DNA of 64,000 bases, taken from contig JAYFMW010000010.1 in the NCBI GenBank assembly GCA_042408215.1, positions 96,001 through 160,000 on the forward strand. Reading direction: 5' to 3'. Below, piece by piece: positions 16,520 to 40,350 of this stretch. The notes under the pieces were generated by a model. It saw only the letters and a program-made list of their open reading frames with translations. It had not been told where the DNA came from and ran no database searches. Every line of letters starts with the position of its first letter. Position 1 is the first letter of the stretch. Origin of the DNA: Microcoleus sp. (GTDB lineage: Bacteria > Cyanobacteriota > Cyanobacteriia > Cyanobacteriales > Microcoleaceae). Made by a program: the position numbers and the translations under genes.

Positions 16520-17581
16520 ATGACCAAAACCTTAATTCCCGTGATTCTCGCCGGCGGTAAAGGCGAACGCTTCTGGCCACTCAGTCGCAAACATCGCCCC
16601 AAACAGTTTTTGAGTCTCGATGGTAGCGGCAAAAGTTTGCTGCAAGTCACAGCCGATCGCCTGTTAACATTAGGTGGCGGTTGGGACGATTTGTGGGTAG
16701 TGACATCCGAAATGTTGGCTGCGGGAGTGCGCGAACAGTTGCCGCTGCTACCTCCTGAGAATTTGCTGGCGGAACCGGAGGGCCGGGATACTGCGCCGGC
16801 GGTGGCTTGGAGTGCGATCGAAATTGCGAAACGTTACGGTGAGGATGCGGTTGTCGGGTTTTTCCCGGCGGATCACTGGATTGGGGAACCGGAGGAGTTT
16901 GAGAAGACTTTGGCTGCGGCGGCCCAGTTGGCGATCGAGAAAAGTGCGATCGCCACTTTAGGAGTCAAACCGAGTTACGCTTCCACTGGCTACGGCTACA
17001 TCGAACAAGGCGAGGAAATTGGCAGTTTTGGCGGTTTTCCGGCCTATCGCGTCGCCCGGTTTACAGAAAAGCCCGATCGCGCCACGGCTGAGGATTTTGT
17101 AGCCAGCGGCAAATTTAGTTGGAACGGCGGAATATTCGTATTTCGAGTCGGAACAGTCTTGACAGAATTGCGAAATTATGTACCGGAAATGATGGCAGCT
17201 TTGGAGGCAAAAGGCGCCCAGGCTTACTCGCAATTGCCGAAAATTAGCATCGATTACGCGCTGATGGAAAAGACGGAAAAAGCCTGTGTTTTGCCTGTAG
17301 GCTTTAGTTGGGACGATTTGGGTGATTGGAATGCGATCGCCCGTTTGCTGCAAGGAGACAAGCCGAATGTGGAATTAGCAAAACACATCGGAATTGATAC
17401 GAAGGGCGCTATTTTTTATGCAGCGGATGAGAATGAAGTAATTGTCACCATTGGTTTAGAAGATGTCGTAGTTGTCAGAGATGGAAATGTGACTTTGATT
17501 GTCAAAAAAGACAGGACGCAGGAGATTAAACAGGTAATCAAGGTGTTGGGAGAAGATGAGAAGTTGAAAGATTTGCTGTAA
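16520..17581 (+). CDS. manC: Mannose-1-phosphate guanylyltransferase
   Basis: VILAGGKGERFWPLSR..PKQF, EPEGRDTAPA, PADH, FTEKP, SIDYALMEK, WDDLGDW. Confidence 0.92.
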   Translation: MTKTLIPVILAGGKGERFWPLSRKHRPKQFLSLDGSGKSLLQVTADRLLTLGGGWDDLWVVTSEMLAAGVREQLPLLPPENLLAEPEGRDTAPAVAWSAIEIAKRYGEDAVVGFFPADHWIGEPEEFEKTLAAAAQLAIEKSAIATLGVKPSYASTGYGYIEQGEEIGSFGGFPAYRVARFTEKPDRATAEDFVASGKFSWNGGIFVFRVGTVLTELRNYVPEMMAALEAKGAQAYSQLPKISIDYALMEKTEKACVLPVGFSWDDLGDWNAIARLLQGDKPNVELAKHIGIDTKGAIFYAADENEVIVTIGLEDVVVVRDGNVTLIVKKDRTQEIKQVIKVLGEDEKLKDLL

Positions 17582-32431: not shown

Positions 32432-34084
32432 GTGTTCAGCCTAGTTCAAACCACTTCTCGCCAAGGAGAAATCCTAGAGGTCGTCTTCCGCAACGGTTGG
32501 GACTACATGAAAAGCCTTCTCACCGGCAGCAAAACCGACGCACCCAGTCTCCCAACCCCAGCAGTTCTCCGCAACATCCTCGTCGAATTAGGCCCCGTTT
32601 ACATCAAATTGGGCCAATTGCTCAGCACCCGTCCCGACCTTTTACCCGCCGCCTACATCGACACCCTCTCCTCTCTACAAGCGGATGTGCCGCCCGTACC
32701 GTGGTCAGAAGTAGAAGCAATCATCCGCAAGGAACTCAAACAGTCGATCGAAGAAACCTTCTCCAAACTTAATCCTAAAGCAGTCGCCGCCGGCTCGATC
32801 GCCCAAACCCACAAAGCCACACTAAAAGACGGCCGCCAAGTCGCCCTCAAAGTTCAGCGTCCAGGTATTGATATCATCATCGAACAAGATATCGCCGTCC
32901 TCAAAGGTTTAGCAGAACTCGTCAGCCTCACAGACTTCGGTCAACAATACGATATCATCGCCCTAGCAGAAGAATTTGGCACAGCATTAAGAGCAGAACT
33001 CGACTTCATTCAAGAAGCCACATACACCGACGAATTGCGGCGCGACTTATCAACAAGCCGCTGGTTCGATGCCAAACAAATCGTAGTCCCAGAAATTCAC
33101 TGGAACCTGACTACAAAAAAACTCATGGTAATGGAATGGCTCAACGGCATACCCATTCTATTAGGAGATTTGCAAGGCACTGCTTACCAAGGAAATATAG
33201 AAGCAGAACGTCAAGCAGTCAGCACACTTCTTTGTCGAGTATTCTTTCAGCAGTTTTTCATCACCGGCTTCTTTCACGCCGACCCCCATCCAGGCAATAT
33301 ATTTTATCTCAATGACGGTCGCTTAGCCCTATTAGACTGCGGTCTAGTCGGTCGCCTCGACCCGCGCACTCAGCAAAATTTGACAGAATTACTATTAGCA
33401 ATTGTCGATTTAGACGCTCAGCGGTGCAGTCAGTTAACCGTACAAATGGCAGAATCTGCCCAGCCAGACAGTCTATCTCAGCTAGAAAATGATTACTCGC
33501 GACTACTCCGCAAATATTACAATTTGAGCTTGTCACAAATCAATTTTTCGGAAGTGTTTTACGAGATTCTGCAAGTATCCCGCGAGAATAAAATCAGACT
33601 GCCGAGCAATTTGGGTCTATTTACCAAAACGATGGCTAATTTAGAAGGAGTAGCCCGCGCTTTCAACCCCAGACTGAACATTTTAGATCAGATTAAACCT
33701 TTAATGACTGATTTGTTTCGGCGTCAGTTATTGGGAGATGATCCGCTGCAAGCTTTGTTGAGAACAGCCCTAGATATTAAAAGTCTGTCTTTGCAATCTC
33801 CCCGGCAATTAGAAGTGCTGTTAGACAGAGTTACTTCGGAAACTTTGAAATGGAATTTAACTCTCAAAGACCTCGATCCGCTGCGTCGCAGTTTGGATGA
33901 TTCTGCGAACCGACTTTCTTTTAGTATTGTAGTTGGTTCCCTGATTGTGGGAGCGGCAATTGTTTCTGCTAATGCTCAAACTGCTCAGTTATCTTTTTTG
34001 AGCAATAGTTTGTTTGCAGCTGCGAGTTTTTTGGGTTTGTGGTTAATTATTAGTATTCTCAGGTCAGGGCGTTTGCGGGGATGA
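32432..34084 (+). CDS. AarF/ABC1/UbiB family kinase
   Basis: LGPVYIKLGQLLSTRPD, AAGSIAQ, ALKVQRP, FFHADPHPGN. GTG start at 32432 preceded by GGAGG. Confidence 0.9.
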   Translation: MFSLVQTTSRQGEILEVVFRNGWDYMKSLLTGSKTDAPSLPTPAVLRNILVELGPVYIKLGQLLSTRPDLLPAAYIDTLSSLQADVPPVPWSEVEAIIRKELKQSIEETFSKLNPKAVAAGSIAQTHKATLKDGRQVALKVQRPGIDIIIEQDIAVLKGLAELVSLTDFGQQYDIIALAEEFGTALRAELDFIQEATYTDELRRDLSTSRWFDAKQIVVPEIHWNLTTKKLMVMEWLNGIPILLGDLQGTAYQGNIEAERQAVSTLLCRVFFQQFFITGFFHADPHPGNIFYLNDGRLALLDCGLVGRLDPRTQQNLTELLLAIVDLDAQRCSQLTVQMAESAQPDSLSQLENDYSRLLRKYYNLSLSQINFSEVFYEILQVSRENKIRLPSNLGLFTKTMANLEGVARAFNPRLNILDQIKPLMTDLFRRQLLGDDPLQALLRTALDIKSLSLQSPRQLEVLLDRVTSETLKWNLTLKDLDPLRRSLDDSANRLSFSIVVGSLIVGAAIVSANAQTAQLSFLSNSLFAAASFLGLWLIISILRSGRLRG

Positions 34085-34436
34085 ATGGCACAAGATTAGT
34101 ATATGTTCAGTCCTGGACGCATTTGAACGTAATTCTGTCATTCTGAGTGAAACGAAGAATCTCAAAGCTTTGCAACAGCGTCTAGAGTGCGTAAATCCTG
34201 TGTGTTGTGGAACAGGCATCTTGCCTGTTCCGTAAATCCTGTGTGTTGTGGAACAGGCATCTTGCCTGTTCCTAAGAATGCTGCAAGATGTAATATCAAA
34301 TCCGGTAGCATCGGAATTATTCATCTCTCTCTTCTCTCCCTCTGCGCCCTCTGCGCCCTCTGCGGTTAAATCATTCCGATGCAACCGGAAACGATATAAC
34401 ATATAGCCAAGTGCAACAAGCGAACAAATATAGCCT

Positions 34437-37400
34437 ATGTCACAGCATAATTATTCTCTCCCAAAGTCAGCAATTAGAGACAACCGCCACCGCGAAACTG
34501 TGGGCGATTTTTTGAAAGCCAAGGTTGAGGAAAACTCAACCTTGTCAATTGTTTCTGCTTACTTTACAATTTATGCATTTGATGCCTTGAAGGAACAACT
34601 TCTAGGCATTAAAAACTTGAAATTCCTGTTTGGCGAACCGCGCTTCATCAAGTCCCTTGACCCCAGTAAAACCGATAAAAAGGCATTCCAAATTGAGGAT
34701 GAGGGCTTGCAGCTACAGAATCGGTTGCAGCAAAAACGGGTTGCGAAAGAATGTGCAGAATGGATTGAGAAAAAAGTGCAGATACGGTCGGTCAAGCAAT
34801 CTAATTTACTGCACGGCAAAATGTATCACATTGCTCATAACGGAAGCGAAAATGCTATTATGGGCAGTTCTAATTTTACCATGCGGGGACTGGGATTAGG
34901 CAGGAAAAACAACAATATTGAACTCAATTTAGAAGTAGATAGTAAACGAGATAGCCACGACATTAAAGCCTGGTTTGATGAACTCTGGAATGATGCCGAA
35001 CTGGTCGAAGATGTCAAACAAGACGTGCTCCTGTACCTAGAGCAACTTTACCAGAATAATTCTCCTGAATTTATCTACTACAAAACTCTGTTTCATATCT
35101 TCGAGACTTTTCTAGATGACCTAGAAAAAAGCGATATTCTCAGCGAACAGCTACACCTATTTGATACAGAAATCTGGAAATCTCTATTTGAATTTCAAAA
35201 AGACGGAGTTAAGGCCGCTATCAATAAAATCCGACGATATAACGGGTGTATTATTGCTGACAGCGTTGGTTTAGGTAAAACATTTGAAGCTCTAGCGGTG
35301 ATTAAATATTTTGAACTTCGCAATCAAAAAGTTTTGGTTCTTTGTCCCAAAAAACTCCGCGAGAATTGGACTGTATATCTAGCACAGAACAATAGCGAAC
35401 TGAATCCTTTTCTTAAAGACGGCTTTAACTATGCAGTCCTATCTCACACCGACTTGAGTCGTGACTCTGGTTACTCTGGGGACATTAATTTAGCAACGAT
35501 TAAGTGGGGAAACTATGACTTGGTAGTTATTGACGAATCCCACAATTTCCGCAACAACATCAAGAGTAAACGGGACGAATTTGGCAATCTAATTAGAAAG
35601 AGTCGTTACGAAAGGCTGATGGATGATATTATCAAGAGCGGTGTCAAAACTCAGGTGCTACTCTTATCAGCAACTCCGGTTAACAATGATTTAAAGGATT
35701 TGCGGAATCAACTTTATTTTATCACAGAAGGTCGCGATGCTGCGTTTAGCGAATCGCTGGGAATTGCTAGTCTGCGCGATACACTAGCTGATGCTCAGCG
35801 GAAATTTACCAAGTGGGCTAAGAAAAGTCGCGATCGCAAAACTAGCGAACTCCTGGAAGAACTAAGTTCTGCTTTCTTCAAACTGCTTGACCAATTGACG
35901 ATCGCCCGATCGCGCAAGCACATTCAAAAATACTATAAAGATGCGATCGCCCAATTAGGCGGCTTTCCAGAACGGCTCAAACCCATCTCCGTATTTCCTG
36001 ACATTGACCTAGAGGGTGAGTTCATGTCCTACGAACAGCTTAACAGCGAAATTTCTAAATATCAACTCTCGCTATTCAACCCTTCAAAATATGTCCTGTC
36101 GCCATACCGTTCAGTGTATGAAAATAAAACAGGGCGAAATTTCAGACAGAGCGATCGCGAACGGTGTTTAATTGGTATGATGAAAGTCAATTTCCTGAAA
36201 CGCTTAGAAAGCTCCATTCGTTCCTTTTCGCTGACAATGGAACGCACAATTAACAAAATTGAATATCTAGAGAAAAAAATTCAAAACTTTCAGCAATTTC
36301 AGCAATCTCGCGAGGCTAACCAGACAGTTATTTTCAGCGATTTAATGATTGAAGACTTCGACGATGAAGAGTTGCAAGATGCCATGCAAGTAGGTCAAGA
36401 GCTGATATTTCAAATGGCGCACCTCGATGTCAAAACGTGGTTAAAAGACCTGAAATGCGACAAGGAACAGCTTAAAAAAATTTACAATTATGCCCAAAGC
36501 ATTTCTGTTGAACGGGATGCCAAGTTAGCTGAGTTAAAAGCACTAATCGCCGAGAAAGTCAAGCATCCTACGACTAACAAGCATGGCCAACCAAATCGCA
36601 AGGTTTTAGTCTTTACTGCCTTTGCAGATACGGCAGTTTATCTCTACGAAGGATTGCGGGAATGGGCAACATTAGAATTGAAAATTAACCTAGCTTTGGT
36701 GACTGGTGGTTCGGCGAAAAATAAGACTACCTTTGGCAAAAATGAGTTCAATCGCGTCCTGACAAATTTTTCGCCTTTCGCCAAGAAACGCGCTCAAATT
36801 CCATCTATGCCACAAGACGGCGAGATTGACCTATTAATTGCCACAGATTGTATTTCAGAAGGGCAAAATTTACAAGATTGCGATTATCTGATTAACTACG
36901 ACATACACTGGAACCCAGTCCGAATTATTCAGCGGTTCGGTAGGTGCGATCGCATTGGCAGCCCCAACCATACCGTACAATTAATCAATTTTTGGCCGAC
37001 AGAGGACTTGGATCGGTACATCAATCTGAAAAATCGAGTAGAAGCACGGATGGCATTAGCGGATATTGCTGGTACATTTGAAGATAACCTGCTGGAGGCT
37101 CTTGAGATTCAAGAATTGATTGAGAGTGATTTGAAATACCGCGACAAGCAGTTGCTGCGATTGAAAGACGAGGTGCTGGATATCGAAGATTTCACCGAAA
37201 GTGTCGCCCTAACGGAATTCAGTCTCGATGATTTCCGAATGGAACTAGCCAAATACATTGAGAGCAACCGCAAACTACTCCAAGATGCTCCTTTAGGACT
37301 CTATGCAATAGTTCCAACTAACTCGGAGTACCCGATCATTGCTCCCGGCGTAAATTTTTGCCTCAAACAGAAAGGCGATTCTCTTGATAATAAAACTGTC

Positions 37401-37748
37401 AATCTGCTGCAACCATATTTTGTAGTTTACGTGGGAGAAAATCAGGAAGTGCGATTAAATTTTGCTCAACCCAAACAAATACTTGAAATATACCAGTTGC
37501 TGTGCGCGGGATGTACTGTTCCCTATGAAGAGTTGTGCAACTTGTTCGATCGAGAAACTAATAATGGATTTGATATGAATTTGTATAACGATTTGCTTAA
37601 GCGGGCGGTTGATTCAATTGCAGGTATTTACAACAAGCGGCTCATCGACAATCTGCTGTCTAGCCGCCGTGCTGTGTTGGTTGAACAAGCGCATCAGGTT
37701 AAAGCAACAACGGATTTTGAACTGATTACTTGGTTGGTGATTAAATGA
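34437..37748 (+). CDS. SNF2-family helicase with N-terminal PLD-like nuclease domain
   Basis: HGKMY...GSSNFT (PLD HxK...GSxN); [40 protein letters not shown]. Confidence 0.88.
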
Positions 37749-39271
37749 GCGTCAGGGAACAACAAGCCAAAGCATCTATTAATCAAGCTTTAAATAGTTT
37801 TGCCAAGGGAAAACTAGCCGATAACGCCCGGAATTTGTTCTTTGCTCTTGGCTACCGCAGTGACAGAACGAGTCAATTTTATCCCAATACTTCGGATAAC
37901 TTTATTGCGACTTTTGACATAGATCAAAAGCTCAACTCCCAAAAAGCTCTCTTAGAGGAATGGCTGTCGGTTGATTTTCTCTTCCAGTTTACCGGGACAG
38001 AAATTGCAGATAACGATCAGTTTGTCGAATTTGATAGTAGCAGTGGTGAGAGTGCCTTTTTTACTTCCTACTTGTTTTTCGCGATCGCACTGCGGAGGAG
38101 CGCGTACACTATAGAACAACTTGACGGGATTATCCGCGAGATTAATCAACTTTTACCGATGCCTGCGATCGTTCTCTTTCAGCATGGAGAAACTCTGACT
38201 TTCTCCATGATAAACCGCCGCGCCAACAAACAAAATGAATCTGAAGATGTATTAGGAAAAGTCAAACATCTTAAAGATATCCCATTCGCCATTCCGACAA
38301 ACTCTCATTTAAAAATGCTCTTCGATCTTTCCTTAGCACAGTTGTATAAAAATCACGGCTTTAGCAACTTTGACGAATTTCATGAAGCTTGGCATCAAAC
38401 TATTCCTGACAGCATCAAATTTAAAGAAGATTCTCTGTGGCAAGATTCGCTTCGCGTTTACCTGCAAGAAATCGGTCGAATTCCCATGCTCAAAGCTGAC
38501 GAAGAGATTGAACTAGCTCGTAAAATTGCTGAATTAGAATTAGAGGGCAGCCGAAAAGCTAAAGACAAAATGGTAGAGTCTAACTTGTGGCTGGTAGTCT
38601 CAATCGCTAAAAAATATCAAAATAGAGGGCTGGATTTCTTAGACTTGATTCAGGAGGGAAATCTGGGTTTAATCAAGGCTGTAGAAAAGTTTGATTGCAG
38701 GAAGGGCCACAGGTTTTCCACCTACGCGAATTGGTGGATTCTTCAGGCAATTATGCTGGCGATCGACAACCATTCCCGCACCATCCGGCTACCAGTTCAT
38801 TTGTGGCGTACAATTTCCGAGGTTAAGCAAACTACCAAGCTGCTTTCTCAAGAATTTGGTCCCATTCCCAAGATGGAAGAAATCGCCAATCGTTTGGAAA
38901 TGACAACTGCAAAAGTGCGCTTGGTTATTCAATCGGCTCTGCCTATCATTTCTTTAGATACTAGAATGGGTGAGGAGGAAGGTTCTACATTGGGAGAGTT
39001 GATTGAATTCGATGGGGAAACACCAGAAGACCAAGTATCGAAAAATTTGCTCCGCGAAGATTTGGAAAGTGTTTTAGATACTCTCAGCCCCCGAGAACGT
39101 GACGTGCTGCGACTGCGTTACGGCTTGGATAATGGCCGCGAGAAGAGTCTAGAGGAAATCGGCAATAGATTTAATGTTACCCGCGAGCGGATTCGGCAAA
39201 TTGAGGCTAAGGCTTTACGAAAGTTGCACCATCTCAACCGCAACAGCATCTTAAAAGAATATATTCGCTAG
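37745..39271 (+). CDS. Fusion of an R-M-enzyme-like N-terminal domain (~230 aa) and a SigA/RpoD-like sigma70 factor (regions 1.2-4)
   Basis: [84 protein letters not shown] overlap with the helicase stop codon. Confidence 0.85.
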
Positions 39272-39573
39272 CTCTACAGCAATTGACTAAACTGAGACAA
39301 AAATACCGAAAAAAAAAGCAAGAGCTCATTACAAACATTTTCTGCTGTGCGATGTACTTAAGCACATCTCTGACTTAAGATAGGCGATCGCCCGCAACAG
39401 CTAAGTCTCAGCTAGAAACTGTTCGATCGACTATCTCTTCAGGAAAAACTGATGAGTAGCGGTTACGCCAGCCCTATGCTTCAGCAGCAATGACAGCAAA
39501 TCCCGTAAGTGCGATCGGTCAACAATCCAACCAAATAAAGCCGCCAGTGCATTCAAGCAATTGAATAAACGCA

Positions 39574-39732
39574 GTCATTAGTTATGAGTCAGCAGTCATT
39601 AGTTATGAGTCAGCAGCTAAAAACTAATAACTGTGGCATAAAGCTGGCGGAAAAATAACATCAGCTAACAGCTAGCAACTAATCACCAATAACTAATGAC
39701 TAATAACTAATAACTAATGACTAATAACTAAC
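39574..39732. repeat. Short tandem heptamer (STRR-like) tract, ACTAATA/ACTAATG
   Basis: Visible tandem heptamers downstream of the CBS-CP12 gene; similar tracts at 8860-8910 and 42120-42245. Confidence 0.8.
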
Positions 39733-40350
39733 TTAGCTGTCGTACATCCGGGCTTCGGCTGCGTCAGGATTTTCCTCGCAATACTCATCAAAAGCAGTTT
39801 TTTCAAGCTTCTGCGATCGCTGGTGAGAAGCCTCAGCCTGCATTTCCTCTACAATATCCCAAGCTACCGCGCACTCTTTGGAAGTAACTCCTTTTTCGGC
39901 ACAAATAGTCCTAGCCTCTGCGATCGCCTTTTCAATTTCTTCCTCAAATACAAGACTCTTCGGCTTCTCAAGAAAATCGCTTTTTGTCAAGATATCCGTT
40001 ACCGAAATAATGCCGACCAGCTTGTCCTTAATCACCGGAGCCCGTCGGATGCGGGTATTCGCGAACAATCTAGCCACGTATTCCACACCCAAGTCAGGAT
40101 TCACCGTAATGCACGGTTTGGTCATAATCTCGAAGACGCGGACTTTTTTCGGGTCTACTCCGTAGGCTGCTACTTTATAGACAATATCCGTTTCAGTCAC
40201 AATGCCATAGGCATCTTGTTCGTGGCGGCGTTCCACAATCAACGCGCGCAAACACAGGTCGTTCATCATCGCCACCGCTTCAGCTACCGTTGCTGAACCG
40301 CGAATGGTGACCACTTCTGTGGTCATAATATCTTGGGCTTTCATCATCAT
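39733..40350 (-). CDS. CBS-CP12 fusion protein
   Basis: Tandem CBS domains; C-terminal CP12 motif C........C..AWDIVEEM...YCEENPDAAEARMYD. Confidence 0.9.
   Translation of the reverse strand: MMMKAQDIMTTEVVTIRGSATVAEAVAMMNDLCLRALIVERRHEQDAYGIVTETDIVYKVAAYGVDPKKVRVFEIMTKPCITVNPDLGVEYVARLFANTRIRRAPVIKDKLVGIISVTDILTKSDFLEKPKSLVFEEEIEKAIAEARTICAEKGVTSKECAVAWDIVEEMQAEASHQRSQKLEKTAFDEYCEENPDAAEARMYDS

Follow-up and report, generated by a model that had tools for sequence, protein, structure and literature searches.

A methylase-type N-domain fused to a sigma factor beside a PLD-SNF2 helicase in Microcoleus: probable remnant of an undescribed module with an NLR-like ATPase

The closest described relatives of the locus analysed here are the type IIG/IIL restriction-modification (R-M) enzymes such as MmeI, BpuSI and DrdV (REase_MTase_IIG in PADLOC), DISARM, the bacterial NLR-like STAND defence ATPases of the Avs/AVAST type, the sigma-carrying protein MzaA of the MZA system, and the helicase family C3a139 'HKD+Snf2'. 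Shah et al. 2018 (RNA Biol, PMC6546367) list the last of these among the gene families found next to type III CRISPR-cas cassettes. We examined a 64,000-nucleotide (nt) stretch of a Microcoleus sp. contig (JAYFMW010000010.1), hereafter the window, in which the gene of a PLD(HKD)+SNF2 nuclease-helicase overlaps an open reading frame (ORF) of 508 amino acids (aa) that fuses an N-terminal domain of R-M type (N-domain) to a sigma-70 module. We put at about 70% the probability that this pair is a reduced allele of an undescribed module of an NLR-like ATPase and a PLD-SNF2 nuclease-helicase. In the full form, gene 1 would encode the nuclease-helicase and gene 2 an NLR-like giant of ~2450 aa with a methylase-derived N-domain, a sigma copy and a STAND ATPase; the gene pair would probably be anti-phage. 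The original prediction, made from the letters of the window, had treated the 508-aa ORF as a whole gene, whereas it is truncated by deletion and corresponds to the first 508 codons of a gene of ~2450 codons in most relatives. The window allele comprises the following parts.

34437-37748, plus strand: PLD(HKD)+SNF2 nuclease-helicase ORF, 1103 aa (Pfam and PADLOC)
34716-34988, plus strand: PLDc_2 domain of the helicase ORF, aa 94-184 (Pfam)
35193-35732, plus strand: SNF2-rel_dom (SNF2 N-lobe) of the helicase ORF, aa 253-432 (Pfam)
36585-36959, plus strand: Helicase_C domain of the helicase ORF, aa 717-841 (Pfam)
37745-37748, plus strand: ATGA stop/start overlap of the helicase TGA and the fusion ATG, coupling both ORFs
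37745-39271, plus strand: N-domain and sigma fusion ORF, 508 aa
37745-38407, plus strand: N-domain, from the N-domain of type IIG/Eco57I-like methylases, aa 1-221 (homology at 31-49% identity)
38444-39268, plus strand: sigma-70 module, regions 1.2-4.2, aa 234-508, without region 1.1 and the non-conserved region (Pfam)

Compared with the type IIG/IIL enzymes, of which the two-gene form with an HKD+SNF2 helicase comes closest, the N-domain is homologous to the N-terminus of helicase-linked methylases; in structure, the N-terminal domain of DrdV matches it best, and BpuSI is also found (Z 6.1 and 4.3, both weak). Unlike those enzymes, the window ORF and the long forms in relatives have no methyltransferase, NPPY motif or TaqI_C domain; their payload is sigma and, in the long forms, the STAND ATPase. 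Because the module has no modification gene, discrimination of self from non-self cannot proceed by methylation. The window helicase matches the C3a139 model over its whole length (PADLOC PDLC01075, E 4e-125, 417 bits, model positions 18-947 of 948), and the helicases beside sigma-carrying giants in other genera also match this model best (211-220 bits), but there is no cas gene at the window locus and the table passage on this family in PMC6546367 mentions no partner resembling the giant. DISARM, with its SNF2 helicase DrmD, PLD nuclease DrmC and methylase DrmMI, shares SNF2 and PLD chemistry and, in the canonical paralog of our gene pair, a type IIG-like methylase, with DrmD as the second-best match of the helicase; however, the score is 160.3 bits against a DrmD cut-off of 610, PLD and SNF2 lie in one polypeptide, and no DrmA, DrmB or DUF1998 gene was found between the housekeeping flanks (ABC1 kinase and CBS protein).

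Like the Avs/AVAST proteins, the long form has a central STAND/NB-ARC-like ATPase with large flanks, encoded beside a nuclease; unlike them, it matches no Avs or STAND model in PADLOC, its nuclease-helicase is a separate protein, and the ATPase is missing from the window allele. MzaA (NF041931, PDLC02203) is an earlier case of a larger protein associated with defence that ends in a sigma-70 module, and it matches aa 237-507 of the fusion. The match nevertheless covers the sigma part only (296.5 bits against a cut-off of 800), the N-terminal part differs, no Mza genes are adjacent, and the match is generic, since the host's own primary sigma factor SigA scores higher on the same model (346 bits). 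Full-text searches of the open literature (subscription-only papers and bioRxiv supplements being outside this scope) turned up neither a sigma-STAND ATPase fusion beside a PLD-SNF2 helicase nor an integrated copy of the host primary sigma in STAND defence ATPases. The unusual feature here is the integrated sigma copy; a STAND ATPase together with a nuclease effector is a known combination.

The evidence that the window carries a reduced allele comes from its relatives. We surveyed 144 genomes of the family, calling those of Microcoleus congeneric, and found the N-domain in 40/144, with the sigma-linked type in 27 congeneric ones. The sigma-linked open frame spans 2372-2457 aa in 15 of these 27 genomes, 1882-1886 aa in four, 941-971 aa in three and 481-549 aa in four, the window included; in the last genome it is cut by a contig end. 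At a syntenic long locus (L042) an ABC1 kinase is followed in turn by the helicase (1103 aa), a 2454-aa ORF, UvdE (UV-damage endonuclease), SRAP (SOS-response peptidase) and CBS protein. The 2454-aa protein consists of the N-domain, sigma at residues 234-496, ~1270 mostly helical residues, an AAA_22 domain at 1773-1910 and a further ~540 aa; long forms of this kind are named 'sigma-70 family RNA polymerase sigma factor' by NCBI. The original proposal that the methylase had been replaced by a sigma factor is not supported in that form: the replacement in the long alleles is not sigma alone; it is sigma plus a STAND-like ATPase part of ~1950 aa. One sigma-linked allele (G087) carries an internal TAA. 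The alleles of 1882-1886 aa (L054, L055, L060, L063) keep the ATPase and have ~570 helical residues (~920-1493) missing in frame, a form that recurs on close as well as distant N-domain lineages.

All 25 congeneric loci with enough sequence have the helicase directly upstream of the fusion gene and the helicase-ATGA-fusion junction; the overlap sequence ATTAAATGAGC is identical in 23 of the 25, the other two diverging only past the ATGA. The module as a whole is a presence/absence island, found in 30/78 genomes of the genus, and three of four congeners without it show the empty site ABC1-UvdE-SRAP-CBS-GlpX.

How the window allele was shortened can be read from its 3' end. By blastn, window 34393-39309 corresponds to L042 4491-9403 at 91.7% identity, and the next match starts at L042 15208. 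The features around this break are as follows.

39269-39271, plus strand: TAG stop within four inserted nt that the long alleles lack; their frame continues as ...YIRPTP...
39272-39340, plus strand: non-coding relic of the post-sigma linker of long alleles and the deletion junction (blastn, alignment with G071 and G082)
39330-39476, plus strand: homolog of the sequence right after the giant's stop, equal to L042 15208-15350 (the giant ORF ends at L042 15207)
39470-39553, plus strand: relic of the SRAP 3' end (~84 nt), equal to L042 17391-17473 (SRAP of L042 at 16817-17488)

Two other short alleles, G071 (544 aa) and G082 (549 aa), share the junction of the window; at the position of its TAG, G071 has TAG and G082 has TCG. 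The window is colinear with both through alignment column 113 and then shows a gap of ~310 nt, where G071 and G082 retain a degenerate relic of ~105 codons from giant residues ~1553-1657; a further deletion of ~310 nt has removed it from the window. The short and intermediate alleles other than the window hold degenerate relics of giant residues ~1470-1657 at 59-65% identity, and the 971-aa allele of G098 joins residues 1-847 to a relic of 1506-1657. Since short and intermediate alleles hold relics of the giant and the short alleles share one junction, the change ran from long to short, as read from these alignments, and no allele seen is further reduced than that of the window. The same relics and common junction rule out the reverse order, an ancestral short form lengthened by insertion. 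Congeners have UvdE and SRAP at this site; the window has lost the former and nearly all of the latter, and tblastn found neither there apart from the ~84-nt SRAP relic. The steps in the window lineage would have been a 4-nt insertion that made a TAG exactly at the sigma C-terminus, deletions that took the remaining ~1945 codons of the giant gene, and later deletions that took the leftover relic together with UvdE and SRAP, leaving the N-domain and sigma (508 aa) beside an intact helicase.

The fusion might instead be an assembly error or a one-off rearrangement, and the original prediction had itself named a fusion confined to this assembly, with neutral evolution or no spanning sequence, as what would undo it. 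The fusion is found in 27 genomes and in many metagenome protein clusters, its median dN/dS values (given below) lie below 1, and contigs of three independent studies (X1, X2, X3) cover the N-domain/sigma boundary and bridge the 3' junction, from 39040 to 39523-39717. These observations rule out misassembly and a unique event, and we give that explanation practically no credence. A contig from an RNA library (X14, coverage 38450-39800) spans 38774-39800 and also keeps the stop; it may stem from DNA in the library, so that transcription of the gene pair is not shown by it.

What the window has lost is, by homology and modelling, an ATPase. For the C-terminal 1155 aa of the long form, the relatives number 4113 at E<=1e-3 and 2226 at E<=1e-30; they are mostly of 1800-2100 aa with the match at the C-terminus and named, if at all, 'AAA family ATPase' or 'hypothetical protein'. 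In a protein atlas the region falls among AAA_22/nSTAND1 clusters, and the GRQxGKT and LLLDEAD-type columns of the alignment are invariant or nearly so. An AlphaFold2 (AF2) model with a predicted local distance difference test (pLDDT) score of 79 was compared with known structures by Foldseek and matched, at E 2e-6 to 3.5e-5, the NB-ARC domains of plant NRC1/2/4 (NRC1 best, E 2.3e-6), the archaeal ATPases PAB2304 (TMt 0.57) and SSO1545, ORC/Cdc6, CED-4 and Apaf-1. On the strength of this model, the missing part is a STAND/ORC-type switch ATPase, and the long protein is NLR-like in layout. The ATPase is absent from the window ORF and has 0 matches elsewhere in the same genome (completeness 99.98%).

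The N-domain points to R-M enzymes, as had been proposed for the first ~220 aa. Residues 1-221 share 31-49% identity, across no less than 94% of the domain, with the N-terminal parts of proteins with PF02384, PF07669 and PF12950. A protein search with aa 1-232 found the domain on sigma fusions (57-91% identity) and on non-sigma proteins (41-49%), the latter carrying N6_Mtase and Eco57I domains, TPR repeats, or a DUF4391 match alone. The longer non-sigma carriers are enzymes of 986-1337 aa with N6_Mtase, Eco57I and TaqI_C, some also with MmeI_Mtase, a type IIG-like layout. DUF4391 (PF14335) scores 19.1 bits on the window protein against a gathering threshold of 29.9, and seven N-domain homologs have a precomputed PF14335 match (P0012, P0014, P0019, P0021, P0025, P0026, P0042). 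Consistent with the original account of the fusion ORF, Pfam, NCBIfam and PADLOC detected no methyltransferase family, NPPY or TaqI_C in either the 508-aa ORF or the 2454-aa form.

The original prediction had further stated that helicases of this type are usually followed by an Eco57I/type IIG-like methylase that starts with such a domain. This rule is verified: among 20 non-sigma loci of cyanobacteria, drawn from 401 sampled cyanobacterial genomes and from the family search, 17 have the C-terminus of a window-type helicase directly upstream of the N-domain. The window's own genome provides a further case on another contig, where a 1117-aa PLD-SNF2 helicase, 68% identical to the window's, overlaps an ORF with an N-domain (42% identical to the window's) and Eco57I that PADLOC calls REase_MTase_IIG. 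In this paralog pair (L010, contig C6, 7316-14000, minus strand) the helicase is intact and the methylase is broken: its frame ends 4 codons past NPPY, and what remains of the Eco57I domain lies in other frames (a 218-aa ORF). Both helicase paralogs of this genome are intact and both partner genes damaged.

Structure suggests an additional view of the domain. The AF2 model of the N-domain is confident (pLDDT 91.5), and Foldseek gave no match in the PDB at E<=0.001. A structural search against representatives placed the DrdV N-terminal domain first, with a Z of 6.1 that is weak and in the common range, followed by BpuSI (Z 4.3, weak) and several restriction-endonuclease-like folds. These model-based matches suggest, as a lead only, that the N-domain does not serve purely for docking and resembles an endonuclease, possibly an inactive one.

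The sigma part is, by sequence, a copy of regions 1.2-4.2 of the host primary sigma factor. It starts at nt 38444, as had been placed by eye and as the Pfam match to region 1.2 indicates, and all four Pfam domains score above cut-off.

38444-38536, plus strand: Sigma70 r1.2, aa 234-264
38570-38779, plus strand: Sigma70 r2, aa 276-345
38810-39034, plus strand: Sigma70 r3, aa 356-430
39071-39229, plus strand: Sigma70 r4, aa 443-495

The module is 66% identical to a 435-aa paralog in the same genome (71% over aa 254-508), compared with at most 49% for the other sigma paralogs. This 435-aa protein is the primary sigma factor SigA (NCBIfam RpoD, 712.5 bits against a cut-off of 500); the fusion is without its region 1.1 and without its ~36-aa non-conserved region. 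Residues in NLRLVV, YATWWIRQ and TRAI serve in core binding and -10 recognition in E. coli sigma-70. The window changes several otherwise conserved sigma positions (NLRLVV to NLWLVV, WWIRQ to WWILQ, ITRAI to IMLAI). The sigma-carrying giants of other genera keep YATWWI(R/K)Q, RTIRLPVH and TRERIRQ, with WWI(R/K)Q or SWIRQ in 10/10.

With regions 1.2-4.2 complete, including the helix-turn-helix of region 4.2, the 508-aa ORF could be an additional, group 2-like sigma factor with an odd N-terminal extension that regulates ordinary genes, the helicase being unrelated to it. Its closest NCBIfam model is indeed the cyanobacterial RpoD (NF005643), and the NCBI name of the long forms agrees, but at 455.8 bits the ORF falls below the cut-off of 500 that the true SigA clearly exceeds. 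An ordinary regulator would also sit poorly with translational coupling to the helicase in all 25 loci, with a sigma that in most genomes is embedded in a 2450-aa ATPase protein, with the patchy distribution of the module in the genus, and with a sigma dN/dS of 0.43-0.73, far above that of the adjoining helicase. We consider this explanation highly improbable.

A wider comparison links the sigma module to its helicase partner. We assembled 80 loci encoding relatives of the ATPase, comprising 21 of the Microcoleus type, 13 giants with sigma in other cyanobacterial genera (sigma-giants) and 46 giants without sigma. The 13 sigma-giants, from genera including Scytonema, Brasilonema, Aulosira, Dolichospermum, Phormidium, Floridaenema and an Okeania-like one, are 2158-2439 aa long, two being broken or partial (L074, L095), and start with a different N-domain of ~180 aa. 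An adjacent PLD+SNF2 helicase of 1089-1115 aa, 27-33% identical to the window's and of another subfamily, was found at 11 of these 13 loci, and the remaining two loci end at or within 440 nt past the giant gene. Among the 46 sigma-less giants, which come from many phyla, a helicase match occurs at three. Because 11/13 sigma-giants have the helicase versus 3/46 sigma-less giants, we conclude from these gene neighbourhoods that the sigma module and its PLD-SNF2 partner travel together.

In Microcoleus, the partner helicase would have been swapped for the R-M-type one and the N-domain for that helicase's usual one, while sigma stayed. That helicase and N-domain were exchanged together while sigma stayed is the best argument for the N-domain being a helicase-specific adapter. 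The ~180-aa N-domain of the other genera has no match in Pfam and no usable match in the protein atlas, and its common origin with the Microcoleus N-domain is unsupported (hhalign probability 1.6%, E 0.033 over 61 columns). Complex prediction for helicase residues 560-1103 with the N-domain gave a score of 0.51 (runs 0.46, 0.57 and 0.51), against 0.00 for the best of three controls. At least 87% of contacts are common to the runs, with a partner pLDDT of 81 or more. The mark used is passed by 116/157 solved complexes and 2/215 mismatches; passes at or below 0.60, where our score lies, comprise 18/157 solved complexes and both mismatches, and such scores are more often wrong than right. The original term 'helicase-docking domain' thus has weak support from this prediction, together with the conserved adjacency, whereas the structure comparison hints at an endonuclease-like fold.

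Other associations were seen among these loci. Phormidium sp. R1S1 has two pairs of sigma-giant and PLD-SNF2 helicase (L066 and L073), one on the chromosome and one on plasmid pPhorR1S1_1, and in [Phormidium] LEGE 05292 a phage-type integrase gene directly follows the helicase (L072 16908-17876). The plasmid copy and integrase neighbour hint, from gene context, at mobility. At five sigma-less loci examined, the giant is followed, often with overlap, by a conserved protein of 372-396 aa with no Pfam or PADLOC match (L083 13431-14594, L097 13314-14480, L122 13318-14508, L093 13420-14538, L090 13493-14611); the hosts are Cyanobacteria, Acidobacteriota and Betaproteobacteria. By its gene order, the sigma-less giant with this protein is a second widespread two-gene module.

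Selection was estimated as pairwise Nei-Gojobori medians of the ratio of nonsynonymous to synonymous substitution rates (dN/dS, ω), ignoring recombination, from 153 long-long pairs and six short-short pairs (four short alleles). The comparison had been proposed with the original prediction, and the medians are below 1 in helicase, N-domain and sigma alike, as follows.

Helicase C-terminus: median ω 0.15 (long-long), 0.11 (short-short)
N-domain: median ω 0.31 (long-long), 0.39 (short-short)
Sigma: median ω 0.43 (long-long), 0.73 (short-short, range 0.52-1.21)

As sigma ω rises and the window alters conserved positions, constraint on sigma in the truncated alleles is, on these estimates, relaxed yet not absent.

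These values bear on the original view that the window pair is complete by itself, the R-M docking domain and sigma tethering a translocase/nuclease to RNA polymerase or serving as a decoy for phage anti-sigma proteins. Several results favour such a self-sufficient pair and weigh against our reading of the locus as a reduced module. The window ORF is intact and ends exactly at the natural C-terminus of sigma. Of 1521 sites, 168-170 differ between it and G071 or G082, yet no stop has arisen, and when 180 substitutions were placed at random in simulation, the frame stayed open in only ~2 of 10,000 trials (~0.02%). Since random substitutions nearly always close the frame, the truncated ORF seems, from this comparison, to have been kept open. 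A caveat to this argument is heavy recombination: the trees of helicase, N-domain and sigma disagree, the short alleles clustering in the sigma tree only, so recombination with selected long alleles may be the source of many of the differences among short alleles. The helicase is full length in 4/4 genomes with short alleles and under strong purifying selection there (ω 0.11). The short allele is present in four species-level genomes, in contigs of three studies and in the RNA-library contig, and truncated forms are common in public data (nine clusters of 506-551 aa and 13/70 rows of 932-973 aa); because both short and mid-length truncations recur, a short form with a use of its own is possible. 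The complex prediction between N-domain and helicase (0.51 versus 0.00 for the best control) is a further, weak point in favour of the pair. Two more points weigh against our reading alone. The W-W dyad of region 2.3 is substituted in some long alleles (L016, L033, L036), which speaks, from sequence, against normal sigma function there and does not tell the tether and bait readings apart. In addition, PADLOC has no model for the giant protein, and neither a publication in the open full-text literature nor a phage-defence model in PADLOC supports a defence role.

Other results count against a self-sufficient pair. The 508-aa ORF derives from a 2450-aa gene through an insertion and deletions, sigma ω goes up from 0.43 to 0.73 in the short alleles, one of these (G102) has a frameshift in region 4, the window has substitutions at sigma positions conserved elsewhere, and the genome holds no other giant ATPase that could act in trans. 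We consider it unlikely, although deserving of serious weight, that the pair is complete as it stands. It is also unlikely, judging from its domain content, that the window allele without the ATPase switch works as the full system does; it may still have some remaining or changed function, such as linking the helicase to RNA polymerase.

The remaining features of the locus concern its surroundings and the helicase gene itself. The two ORFs, their ATGA overlap and their PLD and SNF2 content agree with the original description (ORF list, Pfam), as does the presence of HIP1 sites (GCGATCGC) in both genes, four in the helicase gene and one in the fusion gene; the window has 53 HIP1 sites against 0.61 expected. 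H126, K128, G143-S-S-N146, GLGKT 278-282 and DESH 366-369 of the helicase are invariant in 10/10 aligned helicases. The flanks are housekeeping genes, with the ABC1 kinase upstream and the CBS protein, GlpX and HemA downstream. A scan of 33900-39900 yielded six promoter-like and five terminator-like sites and is uninformative, since these counts do not exceed those of shuffled sequences (10.4 and 6.0). Within the leader region, 34201-34230 and its neighbour 34242-34292 have one common match in relatives, a segment of 30-50 nt just ahead of the helicase gene, indicating a small local duplication (34201-34292). Just upstream of the end of the CBS gene, a run of heptamer-like repeats (TAACTAA/TGACTAA type) occupies 39672-39735, where metagenome contig depth rises 20- to 100-fold (186-1764 versus 7-26 in neighbouring bins), so that the repeat is highly dispersed in the populations sampled there.

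Taking the full module as our preferred reading, the N-domain would hold the nuclease-helicase effector, and the sigma copy, by binding core RNA polymerase or promoter DNA, would bring the complex to DNA that is being transcribed or is invading; the STAND ATPase would act as the switch, sensing a signal or oligomerising. Alternatively, the sigma copy would be bait for phage proteins that target the host sigma. Core binding is, from the pattern of conservation, the more likely role, because the core-binding regions 2.1-2.2 and 4.2 are the best conserved in sigma. A receptor built wholly around the bait, in which a phage protein that seizes or inhibits the host sigma or RNA polymerase binds, the STAND part switches and the nuclease-helicase kept by the N-domain is released on DNA, the window allele being a retained bait-only or tether-only form, seems to us rather doubtful. 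The patchy presence (30/78 genomes), the clean empty site, the plasmid copy and the integrase neighbour would all fit an accessory island of the defence type.

The two-domain fusion of the window is, by comparison with the alleles of its relatives, the remnant of a larger gene, and the name 'sigma-70 family RNA polymerase sigma factor' is wrong for hundreds of database entries that bear it. The natural series of alleles of 2450, 1880, 950 and 510 aa is available for structure-function work. Should the full module serve in defence, it would combine three elements not known together, namely a STAND switch of NLR-like type, a PLD-SNF2 effector on its own polypeptide that is attached through an R-M-derived domain, and a built-in housekeeping sigma, and it would make testable whether bacterial immune receptors guard transcription machinery hijacked by phages. 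If the bait reading proves true, prokaryotic immunity would have in the sigma copy its first 'integrated decoy' drawn from the transcription machinery.

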